Shown here: piece by piece, positions 7,885 through 16,378 of the stretch
Numbering within the stretch: the stretch's first letter is position 1
Layout of the letters: the number at the start of each line of letters is the position of its first letter
Source of the DNA: Okamejei kenojei
Taxonomy: Eukaryota
NCBI GenBank assembly: GCA_035221665.1
Contig: CM069134.1
Location: 80,600,001 to 80,664,000, forward strand
Length of the DNA stretch: 64,000 nt
Direction of reading: 5' to 3'
Program-made: the position numbers and the translations under genes
Notes under the pieces: generated by a model
What the model was told of the DNA's origin: nothing
The model's input: the letters and a program-made list of their open reading frames with translations, nothing else
Database searches by the model: none

Positions 7885-8529
7885 TGTGAGGGATAAAGTG
7901 ATTAAACCCTATTAACGAAAGGAGTTTTAAAGAGAATTCAACAGAGAGGGGCTGGAGAGAGGATTCTGACACAGCAGTGTCTGAAGGTTGCCAGACCCAT
8001 CCTTGAGTCCTTGAGTAAGAAGTGATAGCATTGTATAGCTGTAGAAGGGAGTGATGTAGAGAGATCCCTATCAGTGGAAGGGAGTGATAGATGGGACCCT
8101 TGTCACTATAGCTTAGCTTTAGTATTGATATAGGAAAACTGAGAGGGTTCACTAGGAGGTGAGTAAAACTGGGCCAGTCATGAGCGATTGAGCATGCTTA
8201 ATAGAAAAAATGAATATTACAACACAACCCCTGGTCAAGAAATTGCTCATTACCATGAACATGTTTGAACGTACAATGTATGATATGGGAGGTGCGAGGG
8301 GATGTACGGTGGGATGTACCTACAGATTGTGCACCTCCGACCCTGATTGGAGAAGGGTCCGGAGGGGAGGTTGAATGTAGATTCTGTGTATAAAGGGAAT
8401 GATCTCTCTGGCTTCGGTGTGTCTCGAGTTGGAGAGGCACCCGGTCTGCAGACTCGTAAAATAAAGAAATCTCTTGCTTCCAAGATTTAGTCTTTGAGTA
8501 TTAATTGTGAGCATAAAGGGTATCTCACA
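7885..8529 (+). repeat. ERV 5' LTR
   Basis: TGTGAG...CTCACA terminal inverted ends, ATTGG 8346-8350, TATAAA 8389-8394, AATAAA 8460-8465. Near-identical to 15727-16375. Confidence 0.95.
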
Positions 8530-8532
8530 AAT

Positions 8533-8550
8533 TGGGGGCTCGTCCGCGAT
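8533..8550 (+). promoter_or_regulatory. Primer-binding site complementary to tRNA-Pro
   Basis: TGGGGGCTCGTCCGCGAT matches 17/18 of the MuLV-type PBS-Pro TGGGGGCTCGTCCGGGAT and lies 3 nt after the 5' LTR. Confidence 0.92.
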
Positions 8551-8817
8551 TGCCACTCCGGCTGCTTGGTGGAGGCAAAGAAGGAGGGGAAGGTGCACCC
8601 TGCTGATTTTCAGCAGTCTCTGATCTCCTTGCTTGCCATCAGCAGTTTGAGCGAGTGATATCCGGTGAAAAAGACTCGGGAAGCAAGAGGGGGTGTAAGG
8701 TAAATACATACGGGACGGTCGAGCGATTCTTGTGCACAGGACCCAGGTAAGAAAAACGACTATTAAGTATTACCTGGGCGACCGGGGTCTGTCGGACGGG
8801 AATAGTCCGACGAGATA

Positions 8818-10355
8818 ATGGGAAACCGGAACGGGAGAAGTAAGGGTCCGGGGAACCGGGATGAGGCTCATACTGATAATGGAGCCTAACATTCCCGATA
8901 GTCCGTTGGGGCGAATGTTGGATGGGGTGAAGGGAACACCCGGGGTAAGAGTAGGGAAACTATGATAAAGTTTTGTTACTTTGATTTAAAAAGGAGATGA
9001 AAAGTTTATTGGAAGACCCCTTGGGACTGGCTGAACAAATAGATCAGTTCCTAGGGCCAAAAAAATGTTTTTATGAAAAATATTGAGTTGTTTCAAACAA
9101 TCTCATTGAAGTAATAATGGAACTAATGTGAGGTGTGTAAAAACCGGTTTTGTATGAATGAGGAAGTTTGTATATGTGATAGGTTTGTTTGCTGTGGGCC
9201 ACATGTTGTAAGGGTATGTGTGTGTGTTCCTTTAAGAAATTGTAAGCAATGGGGAGGTTTATTGTAAGGTAACGGACAACACTTTGTAACATCGCAACTT
9301 AAAAAGGGGAAGTTGGAAAATGTAGGTTGCTTGGCTATCTATAGATTTCTTTTCAGTAAAGTTAATTTTGGAAAATTGTTAGTCGTAATGTATTTTAAAC
9401 TAGGAATTGGAATTTGGGAATTGTAGGGGGAAATGGTTTTGAACAAACTTAGAAATAAGTTAATTGCTGAACAACAAGCAGCTTTTATGGATTGTTTAAG
9501 ATAAACATTCTGGTTGGAGAAGGGTAATAAATTAAATGGGGCCCAGGTAAAAAAAAAAAGAGTTGGCAGACAATGATGTCAATAAGGGGAAGTTTGTTTT
9601 ACTTCATAAAAAGACAGATGGTCAGACAGGCAGGAGAAGGGTTACAGGCTCAAGTGGGAGCAGTAAAATATCCCATCACTGCAAGCCGAATTGGAGTAAT
9701 CAAACAGAGGAAGGAAGAAAAAGTATGAGAGATCAGGGAGATAATAATCAAGGGAATTAGAGAAGCCGTTCCCAAGGGACAGAATTTCGAACGGGCTTTT
9801 GAAATCAGCAGAACAAGGACGAACCTCCAACAGTGTTCTTACAAAGATTAAGGAAGAATGTCCAGCAGTATTCGGGGATAGACCCTGATACGACCGCAGG
9901 TCAGCAGTTGTTGAAGGTTAATTTGTAACAAAATCATGGCCAGATATTAGAAAGAAATTGGAAAAATTGGAAGATTGGAATGAAAAACCATTGAATCAGT
10001 TGTTAACAGAGGCTCAAAAGGTATATGTAAGACGGGATGAGGAGAAACAGAAGGGAAAGGCAAAAATGATGTTGCAAGCAGTACAGCAAGGAGTACAGAA
10101 GGGGGGAATCGAAGGTGATAGAAAGCCGGGTGCTCGTGGAGACCGGGGAAGAGGAAGCGGTAGTATTAGAGGACGAGGAAGAGGTGAATGGAGGGACCGA
10201 AGTTGGGGTCCCCGGGAAAACAAGGAAAAGGATCAGGAGGGTGCTACATGGGGCCACCCCGGTGTTATTATTGTAAAGAGCCGGGTCATTTCAAGAGGGA
10301 ATGTCCCAAGCTACGACGGGAGGTGCAGTCGTACGCACTCATGGAGGAAGAATAG
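8818..10355 (+). pseudogene. gag: ERV gag (frameshifted and disrupted in this consensus)
   Basis: MGNRNG start (myristoylation-type), PDSPLGRML matrix motif, capsid C-terminus (PDIRKKLEKLEDWNEKPLNQLLTEAQKVY), zinc knuckle CYYCKEPGHFKREC at ~10263-10304, and TAG at 10353-10355. Confidence 0.85.
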
Positions 10356-13870: not shown

Positions 13871-13892
13871 CATTGAATGTATAACTGACAGT

Positions 13893-15692
13893 ATGAAAGG
13901 AGCAGTCGTGGTATTGTTTGCTTTGTATGTAATTGTTGTAAAAGGTATTAATAATTGTGATAAATGTTATCATCCTATTCAATACAGAGGGTAATAACCA
14001 GATGATTTACCTATCATCCCATGTGAACAAAGTATGCCATGACCGAAAGACTAGAACCATTTGTAAGAGGGGGAAAGGAGTATTTTGAGACAGGCAATAG
14101 GGTATATAGGGAGGTTTGGGGGCCGTTACCTGCCCAAGGGGAGAGAGATGGGTTTGTGTACAGTTAGTTTTCCCTGTCTCAGATCGTAAAATGGGCAATA
14201 GATAAGACGAAGGAGGAAGTAATAAAAGGGTTAACTAAGGTAGTAGTCACTAAGCCTCCCCCTCCCCCACATACTCAGCCTCAAGTGCACCAGACACTGT
14301 ACGAAGAAATAAAGAAGCAGATCGAAATCCTGAAGGAGAAAAAAACCTGTTTGTGGACTTGGCCACCCGATAGCTGGGACCCTGAATGTGACTAACTGTT
14401 GGATCTGCGGAGGACCACTGATGAATTCACGTTGGCCGTGGAGGGGAATCCATTGTTGAAATATGGGACCTGATGGGTGGAACCTGACAGTTGGACAAGA
14501 CCGAGATCCCCAGGTATGGGTCCTGACAGACGCTCCGGTCGGGACTGAGTGTATCGCTAGCCCTGGGCAAAGGATGCCGTCCTAGTAGGCAGCAAGCCCC
14601 TGCCAGCGGCATCGTCACCCAGTGGCTAAATCAGTCCCGAGTGTGGTGGCCAGAGGAGATAAAAGGTATCTAACTAAGAAATATGGGAAAAACTGCGCTA
14701 TCCAGATGGAGATCAATGGAGTGGAATCAGCCGGACTATGGAACTGCACCGGAATAACCCTTACCAGGGGATCCCAGTATTGCGAGATATATGGAACAAG
14801 GTTGCCTCTAGTGGACCGGCCCCTGAAGGACTGTTATGGATATGCGGATCCAAGGCATACTCGGTGTTACCGATGAATTGGAGTGGGACTTGTTTTATTG
14901 GACTGGTACAACCTGGATTCTTCCTGTTAAACACCAAAGAAGGCCGGTCGTTAGGAACACCTGTATTTGATGACCTATATCGGAAAAAGAGGAAAATAGA
15001 CATTGGAGAATGGGAAGATGATGAATGGCCACCAGCAAGAATCATCTCATACTACGGACCAGCCACTTGGGCACAGGATGGATCCTGGGGCTACCGAACA
15101 CCAGTATACATGTTAAACCGGATCATAAGGCTACAGGCAGTACTGGAGGTAATTACCAAACCAAACTGCGGGGGGCGCTGGAAATGCTGGCAAAGCAGCA
15201 GACGCAGATGAGAGCAGCGATATAACCAGAACAGGTTAGCCCTAGATTATCTCCTGCAGAAGAAGGAGGGGTATGCGGGAAATTCAACCTCTCTAATTGC
15301 TGTTTGAACAGCGATGATAATGGACAGGCAGTGATGGACATATCAGAAGGGATCCGGAAGTTGGCGCATGTTCCAATACAAAAGTGGAATTCGATTATGG
15401 GAACCCAATGGTGGGATTCCATCCTCGGAGGAACATGGTGGAGAAACGGTGGGACTTGTGTTTCTATGTGCAGTGGCTGGACTGATCTTTATCCCCTGTT
15501 GTATCCCTTGTTTTAGGGAACTTATTACCAGAAGTATGTCAGATGCAGGCTGTAGTCATGCCTATGGGAGAGAAAGGGGAAATACAGAAAATAATGATAA
15601 TGCAGCCAGGGGAAGTTTATGCTTTACAGGAGGAGAAGGTTAGGACGATGTTACGTCAGTTCGAGTTGAAGGAACTTAAAATGAGGGTTTAA
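13893..15692 (+). pseudogene. env: ERV env, ERV3/HERV-I-like gamma-type envelope (frameshifted in this consensus)
   Basis: Signal peptide MKGAVVVLFALYVIVVKG, NVTNCWICGG (CxxC), furin site RKKR, [41 protein letters not shown], ISD-like QNRLALDYL, CGKFNLSNCC and a hydrophobic TM anchor. Confidence 0.9.
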
Positions 15693-15726
15693 TCAGTGTA
15701 TGCGTAGCAAAAGAAAAAGGGAGGAT

Positions 15727-16375
15727 TGTGAGGGATAAAGTGATTAAACCCTATTAAAGAAAGGAGTTTTAAAGAGAATTCAAACAGAGAGGGGCTGGAG
15801 AGGAGGATTTTGACACAGCAGTGTCTGAAGGTTGCCAGACCCATCCTTGAGTCCTTGAGTAAGAAGTGATAGCATTGTATAGCTGTAGAAGGGAGTGATG
15901 TAGAGAGATCCCTATCAGTGGAAGGGAGTGATAGATGGGACCCTTGTCACTATAGCTTAGCTTTAGTATTGATATAGGAAAACTGAGAGGGTTCACTAGG
16001 AGGTGAGTAAAACTGGGCCAGGTCATGAGCGATTGAGCATGCTTAATAGAAAAAATGAATATTACAACACACCCCTGGTCAAGAAATTGCTCATTACCAT
16101 GAACATGTTTGAACATACAATGTATGATATGGGAGGTGCGAGGGGATGTACGGTGGGATGCACCTACAGATTGTGCACCTCCGACCCTGATTGGAGAAGG
16201 GTCCGGAGGGGGAGGTTGAATGTAAGATTCTGTGTATAAAGGGGAATGATCTCTCTGGCTTCGGTGTGTCTCGAGTTGGAGAGGCACCTGTCTGCAGACT
16301 CGTAAAATAAAGAATCTCTTGCTTCCAAGATTTAGTCTTTGAGTATTAATTGTGAGCATAAAGGGTATCTCATCA
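15727..16375 (+). repeat. ERV 3' LTR
   Basis: Starts TGTGAGGGATAAAG after the polypurine tract (~15709-15726). TATAAA 16235-16240, AATAAA 16306-16311. Confidence 0.95.
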
Positions 16376-16378
16376 TAG

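Follow-up and report, generated by a model that had tools for sequence, protein, structure and literature searches.

The stretch analyzed here, referred to below as the window, comprises 64,000 nucleotides of the Okamejei kenojei assembly GCA_035221665.1 (contig CM069134.1, positions 80,600,001 to 80,664,000 of the forward strand), and all coordinates are those of the window. It contains an endogenous retrovirus (ERV) of 8488 bp on the forward strand (7885-16372), in which long terminal repeats (LTRs), a primer-binding site (PBS), a Met-Gly gag start, one CCHC knuckle, a DSG protease, reverse transcriptase (RT), RNase H, integrase, env and a polypurine tract (PPT) follow one another in order (Table 1). 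All of these parts had been listed in a first-pass annotation made from the letters alone, and the env signature block and CX7CC motif given there were found letter for letter; the "complete architecture" claimed there did not hold, as gag is structurally defective and every gene is broken in the assembly. The PBS, which we take to be of the tRNA-Pro type, has one mismatch to the motif expected for that type. Fragments matching Pfam RVP, RVT_1, RNase_H, rve, Integrase_H2C2, Gag_p30 and zf-CCHC are collinear, several of them below the curated cut-offs because the frames are short. No Pfam match to dUTPase or G-patch was obtained among the provirus fragments scanned, which were not all of its fragments, and an Rfam search and a tRNA scan found nothing. 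With moderate confidence we regard the element as a germ-line, gag-defective, gamma-like provirus of a shark and ray lineage, which was packaged with the aid of a helper and whose frameshifts are mostly errors of the assembly.

Table 1. Positions of the provirus parts, the integration target and the neighbouring V exons in the window.
Feature	Position	Strand	Remarks
Gypsy integrase, C-terminal part	7440..7878	-	Same element as 16379..18631; identity by eye
Target-site duplication, left copy	7879..7884	+	6-bp reading TCATAG
5' LTR	7885..8529	+	645 bp; TG...CA; 6-bp terminal inverted repeat; TATAAA at 8389; AATAAA at 8460
PBS, tRNA-Pro type (presumed)	8533..8550	+	
gag start, matrix N-terminus, Met-Gly	8818..8982	+	ATG-Gly at 8818; frame-broken; stops at deletion junction
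Short capsid piece	8985..9059	+	Stingray Gag 235-259, 88% identical; ~177 codons before the piece absent
Non-Gag stretch within capsid	9060..9545	+	486 nt; 34% T, 8% C
Remaining capsid and nucleocapsid	9546..10355	+	One CCHC knuckle 10263-10304; amber TAG stop 10353-10355
pro-pol	10356..13850	+	DSG protease, RT, RNase H, integrase; WxGPY (WTGPY) motif at 13695
env	13893..15692	+	Signal peptide; N-terminal domain 13908-14239; CWIC 14397; RKKR 14981; CX7CC 15274-15303; membrane anchor, tail
PPT	15709..15724	+	
3' LTR	15727..16372	+	646 bp; end two bases short of 5' copy
Target-site duplication, right copy	16373..16378	+	
Older decayed Gypsy/Ty3-type pol	16379..18631	-	RT, RNase H, integrase; integration target
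Four intact, divergent V exons, T-cell receptor (TCR) gamma-like	35325-35726, 36159-36470, 45561-45953, 59601-60011	-	YYCAxW ends

The sequence features support the proposed assignment to the class I gamma-like proviruses, with a transmembrane subunit (TM) of the ERV3 family. Among solved structures in the PDB, the best match of the RT was that of murine leukemia virus (MLV; 74 bits), followed by foamy virus (47), human immunodeficiency virus 2 (38) and HERV-K (32), and no epsilonretroviral RT was noticed in that match list. The amber codon is in frame with the DSG protease, so that gag and pro share one frame as in class I gamma-like elements, and the integrase tail carries a GPY/F motif of the form WxGPY. 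Env has the gamma-type CxxC motif in the surface subunit (SU), a furin site, an immunosuppressive domain and a CXnCC motif. The nucleocapsid has one zinc finger, which is the gamma-type state; epsilon viruses have two (PMC1224870). The A content of 31.7% lies above the 31% given as a HERVIP marker (PMC4724089), a weak one.

The relatives retrieved with pieces of the provirus point to sharks and rays. An env piece matched 126 proteins among 295 candidates, and in the 120 matches listed the 11 shark and ray Envs stood at the top of the named ones (best five 63-67% identical), the top named matches all being annotated "ERV3-1 Env-like". The protease matched two of 357 candidates, the named one being a stingray Pol, and the capsid piece 71 of 84, including seven named shark and ray proteins, with birds making up the other named ones. 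No ray-finned fish appeared among the named Env (120 listed), protease and Gag matches, in which the other named sequences were from tetrapods. The RT core is 73% identical to that of stingray and 63-69% identical to five of six swallow Pols (34% in the sixth), and capsid identity is 56-70% to the seven shark and ray pieces and 44-65% to 20 bird pieces. Related Envs were found in four shark and ray genera and a related Gag in a fifth, and the named relatives among the matches listed cluster with up to 41 member sequences. For an unrooted TM tree, 61 named Env matches were picked from the 120 listed; rows without a name were dropped, as were most of the redundant swallow rows and of the chimeric models, and a filter on length kept 60. 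In this tree the provirus falls in a 100/99 branch of 33 rows that holds all 11 elasmobranch rows together with marmot, a bat, songbirds, echidna, wombat, rhea, duck and two turtles. The rows nearest to it are bamboo shark and stingray, and a single clade of the 12 provirus and elasmobranch rows was not rejected by the approximately unbiased test (p-AU 0.40). The resemblance to "mammalian/avian ERV3-type env" described earlier is true, but Envs of sharks and rays are closer still, with 71% identity in the TM region.

The TM signature block and CX7CC make the provirus Env an ERV3-type Env in the broad sense, and it belongs to a short-SU group that is sister to a long-SU group. Rows on the branch opposite the short-SU rows have a long SU with CY/CF motifs; the provirus has neither, nor does it group with the primate row. 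Human ERV3, which was not in the TM tree, we presume to belong to the long-SU group, and the database label "ERV3-1-like" spans both groups.

The N-terminal part of the short SU resembles suppressyn. For a stingray relative (P0004), this region matched suppressyn by sequence (E 1e-9) and with a 29-sequence profile (1.6e-13), and its predicted fold retrieved suppressyn at rank 1 in Foldseek (E 1.6e-4). The provirus aligned to the N-terminal domain of P0004 with 42 of 101 codons and all six cysteines in common, at a score of 114 against a null maximum of 36. The domain profile matched 19 of the 32 named short-SU rows at E <1e-8 (seven of these were in the profile; ten are songbirds), leaving the marmot short-SU row unmatched, and none of 29 non-short-SU rows at E <1e-4. 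Four rows (P0074, P0108, P0110 and P0112, from echidna, turtle, rhea and duck) have the CW motif 40-95 residues from the start and no match to the domain, and possibly represent a group without a receptor-binding domain or truncated gene models. A kinship with EnvP(b)1, which might have been expected, was not borne out, since no EnvP(b)1 structure was among the matches listed. A small receptor-binding domain like that of suppressyn probably mediated entry. Suppressyn binds ASCT2 (PMC13709493), and by homology, at ~30% identity, one might guess that the receptor was a solute transporter of the SLC1A kind. A thin search of the literature did not meet this link for the Env group, and the domain offers a testable idea of how short-SU Envs bind cells.

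The defect in gag is structural. In alignments to the stingray Gag P0302, residue 57 corresponds to 8982 and residue 235 to 8985, so that residues ~58-234, about 177 codons, have no counterpart, and the 486-nt stretch at 9060-9545 lies between residues 259 and 263; capsid was split alike in alignments to the bird Gags examined. The stretch is not a displaced or inverted piece of Gag, as neither strand matched any of seven named Gags (best E 0.21). Three of its frames had no Pfam match, and the window holds no other copy of it. It is C-poor and T-rich, and each of its edges bears the short word GGGCC. In PMC4724089 we found no account of defective class I ERVs with AT-rich insertions. Because of the deletion and the insertion, this copy is unable to build its own capsid and is non-autonomous, and the balance of likelihood is that the damage was already present in an RNA packaged by a helper provirus.

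Most of the frameshifts are probably not real. Frameshift-aware alignments to natural relatives revealed 51 breaks in 5747 aligned coding bases, or 8.9 per kb (counted over seven segments without overlap, against references of 53-91% identity and leaving aside the pieces of matrix and nucleocapsid); pro-pol has ~27 breaks with one or two in-frame stops in the assembly, and env ~20 breaks. The aligned bases contain only 1-3 in-frame stops, against ~27 expected under neutral decay. Indels between the two LTRs of one provirus arise only after integration, and here they amount to 7.0 per kb per copy, against 8.9 breaks per kb in the open reading frames. The LTR pair shows nine indels to five substitutions (1.8), whereas three other repeat pairs in the window show 1/9, 1/33 and 7/78 (0.03-0.11); the difference from the pooled 9/120 is significant (Fisher p 1.3e-6), a fourth, shorter and overlapping pair being kept out of the pool. 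Each of the nine LTR indels alters the length of a run (background 0.44; chance 6e-4), an effect that natural slippage would also give. The four V exons, which are under selection, have no breaks in 1233 nt, against 10.9 expected. From the many frameshifts with few stops, the LTR-like indel rate and the unbroken V exons, we infer that the assembly has consensus errors limited to this young repeat, and that these account for most of the ~51 frameshifts and of the nine LTR indels. The true pol and env are then probably much less damaged than they appear, and may be largely open. In a related record, P0001, 423 residues of Env can be read in an open frame, with 89-91% identity overall and no stops.

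The LTRs are identical at 635 of 640 ungapped columns, with five substitutions and nine 1-nt indels, and the Kimura two-parameter (K2P) distance is 0.0079 (~0.8%). Three of the substitutions are clean transitions, one is at a CpG, and two of the five lie in or beside runs or indels. At 2.2e-10 per year, the rate assumed for shark in PMC4422223, this corresponds to 17.9 million years (My; Poisson range 5.8-41 My); at the 7e-10 measured in epaulette shark (PMC10587355), it corresponds to 5.6 million generations, and at a mammalian rate to 1.8 My. Low LTR divergence can mislead on age (PMC4724089), and should the substitutions be errors, the insertion could be of almost no age. The earlier description of a young, recent integration is borne out by the few differences in a relative sense only, since at the shark rate it means ~18 My.

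The provirus interrupts the integrase of the Gypsy element, a point that the first-pass annotation had overlooked; by frame arithmetic, the integrase frame runs on across the insertion point. The integrase tail at 7440-7878 had no Pfam match, and no LTR pair for the Gypsy element was found between 6000-7884 and 16373-23000. The flanks of the provirus have 7 bases in common, and duplication lengths of 3-7 bp were scored against the 5' LTR end. The 3' LTR keeps its CA end only under the 3- or 6-bp readings, each at the cost of one event, and the 3-bp reading leaves the longer common word unexplained; a 5-bp duplication also needs two events. The 4-bp ATAG proposed earlier is the least economical, since it requires two changes and a non-CA end. 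Thus, on the best reading of this single junction in error-prone sequence, the duplicated target is 6 bp (TCATAG). A 4-bp duplication is a trait of MLV-type gammaretroviruses, from which the most economical reading departs.

On the reading that we favor, the provirus would have entered the germ line from a gamma-like class I lineage established in sharks and rays, with priming by tRNA-Pro, readthrough of the amber codon to make Gag-Pol and a spliced RNA for Env, as the anatomy suggests. A gag-damaged RNA would have been packaged by a helper provirus before integrating, most likely by chance, into the decayed Gypsy element near the TCR-gamma V cluster, and consensus errors would then mask less damaged pol and env genes. 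Several observations weigh against this account. The case for assembly error is indirect; in a homopolymer test of 13 env breaks against P0001, nine were in runs, with a background of 75%; and the Gypsy flank, by eye, has ~6-8 frameshifts in 2.3 kb (~3 per kb) and several stops, therefore some real indels are to be expected in the provirus as well. The gag rearrangement could be a mis-assembly or a post-integration event. On the free TM tree the elasmobranch rows need two changes, and no starred small clade forms around the provirus row. The fold comparison gives a modest match to suppressyn (TM score 0.57 of target, root-mean-square deviation 6.0, mean predicted local distance difference test 63.6) and was made on the relative P0004, not on the provirus protein. 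It seems improbable, however, that we are dealing with an ordinary old, fixed and dead provirus in which genuine indels and genuine gag damage built up at this site during ~6-40 My: the age at the slow shark clock, the three LTR transitions and the CpG site, the pol stop near 12220 seen in two alignments and the published caution on LTR dating would all suit such a history, but 51 real indels would imply ~12% substitution along with the missing stops, and the breaks per kb exceed those of the older Gypsy host element, as counted by eye.

The opposite case, a very recent and perhaps polymorphic insertion from an active family with all LTR differences due to assembly errors, is not very probable either. 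A high indel error makes some substitution errors likely, two of the five substitutions lie in or beside runs or indels, and the open Env of P0001 and the size of the relatives' clusters fit an active family; yet the three clean transitions and the pol stop have the look of true mutations, the window yielded neither a solo LTR nor a second copy, and no invading ERVs were counted in 13 cartilaginous fish under filters for identical LTRs and intact open reading frames (PMC10435555). The provirus itself lacks the identical LTRs and the intact genes (gag, pro, pol, env) that define invading ERVs in that study, its gag defect being structural. We consider a recent jump from a bird or other amniote highly improbable. 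The Gag and RT of birds stand just a little further off than those of sharks and rays, and the gamma clade has been called exclusively amniote (PMC6001957), but every one of the nearest rows, whether by tree path or by identity, is elasmobranch, related sequences occur across five shark and ray genera, and 46 orthologous ERV groups have been reported in Chiloscyllium, although the accessible text does not state their lineage (bioRxiv 2021.11.23.469661). A bolder proposal, which we offer as an unlikely speculation, is that of a helper-mobilized, gag-defective member of a gamma-like family whose invasion of an elasmobranch genome is ongoing. Assembly errors, accumulating in young repeats, would hide it from identical-LTR and open-frame screens, and the family would make 6-bp duplications and enter by a suppressyn-like domain common to songbird ERVs; if this were true, a transporter-receptor entry route would extend from mammals to cartilaginous fish.

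The closest known elements are ERVs of Chiloscyllium, Hemiscyllium, Hemitrygon, Narcine and Scyliorhinus (NCBI ERV3-1 Env-like, Gag/Pol), which resemble the provirus in the TM signature, CX7CC, CW-type SU motif, six-cysteine N-terminal domain, single-knuckle Gag and RT (73% identical). Because its whole Env is just 52-53% identical to these named Envs, the provirus represents a distinct family, and its gag deletion and insertion also set it apart. The long-SU ERV3-like Envs of marmoset, capybara, chinchilla, caecilian and squamate share the TM signature, CX7CC and the lack of a plain hydrophobic fusion peptide past the furin site, but have CY/CF motifs ~250-370 residues in when full length and are separated by the 100/99 branch. 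In the ERV-GA lineages considered next, we take Ara and Cpu to stand for skate and bamboo shark. ERV-GA.a-Ara and ERV-GA.a-Cpu are gamma-related ERVs from a screen of anamniotes that included six cartilaginous fish (Chen et al., bioRxiv 2021.11.23.469661), and ERV-GA lineages, compared by description only, have a typical gammaretrovirus structure, a gamma-type Env and CXnCC variants. Also by description only, the HERV-I/HERV-IP group, avian ChiRV1 and a lemon-shark fragment (PMC4422223, PMC1224870, PMC4724089) are class I, have one zinc finger and GPY/F, are A-rich and have close bird relatives, like the provirus, from which the group differs in that the target-site duplication here is apparently 6 bp. 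Suppressyn (PDB 8OUI), a human ASCT2-binding Env remnant (PMC13709493), has a homologous six-cysteine N-terminal domain but no TM, at ~30% identity. The elephant shark CmiERV lineages I-III (PMC4422223) are likewise near-complete chondrichthyan proviruses dated by their LTRs, but their grouping is with snakehead and epsilon viruses, and their LTR divergence is 0.024-0.033, 3-4 times that of the provirus. In addition, PMC4422223 cites an ERV of lemon shark that is closely related to a human one, and PMC11089739 counts, in six chondrichthyan genomes, 2018 RT loci of clade I. The provirus is therefore an elasmobranch gamma-like ERV of a sort already in print and in database annotations, and such elements, earlier held to be poorly described in chondrichthyans, are better called partly known. 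Gamma-like ERVs have been called amniote or largely absent from fish (PMC6001957, PMC9967133), and another near-full-length elasmobranch example backs a resident gamma-like lineage against such amniote-only reviews. In assemblies of this kind, consensus errors can give young ERVs the appearance of dead copies, a possible source of bias in the count of none in 13 (PMC10435555).

The provirus lies 19 kb downstream of the last V exon, a spacing that is approximate because of a 176-base N gap (34244-34419) between provirus and V cluster. The V exons carry 23-spacer recombination signals at 35360, 36168, 45621 and 59649; the YYCAxW ends and these signals are of the type that TCR-gamma V segments have. 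A PDB search with a V exon matched antibody and TCR-gamma chains, and atlas searches with a V exon and the stingray RT gave generic family labels only. No joining (J) or constant (C) segments were found in the window by a motif scan and a search of 87 open reading frames against Pfam. The TCR locus named in the first-pass annotation is consistent with the four V exons, and a cartilaginous-fish host, also proposed there, with the V type and the relatives of the provirus; that the provirus lies inside the locus we can only infer, as neither J nor C was found.

Other repeats also occupy the window. A near-intact long interspersed element (LINE), presumably of CR1 type, has its RT at 49596-52213 (+; RVT_1 by Pfam), in which 307 bp are duplicated in tandem (97%), and a second 3' end stands inverted at 47071-47514 (-; 93%). 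A 264-codon open frame at 52292-53086 (-) is like a C-terminal LINE ORF2, with no Pfam match at E 0.01, and a 133-codon frame at 40234-40635 (-), a hAT-type transposase remnant by eye, has no Pfam match. A Penelope-like element with RT and GIY-YIG endonuclease lies at 55571-59262 (+), with a shorter copy, 83-85% identical, at 5247-6104. A family of 75-130 bp like short interspersed elements (SINEs), which may resemble elasmobranch SINEs, has at least nine copies on both strands, some in close inverted pairs (30681, 34119, 36894, 38500, 39746, 48165, 61473, 63730 and others). Short tandem arrays of 48-bp and 31-32-bp units are located at 62736-62879 and 63222-63372, respectively.

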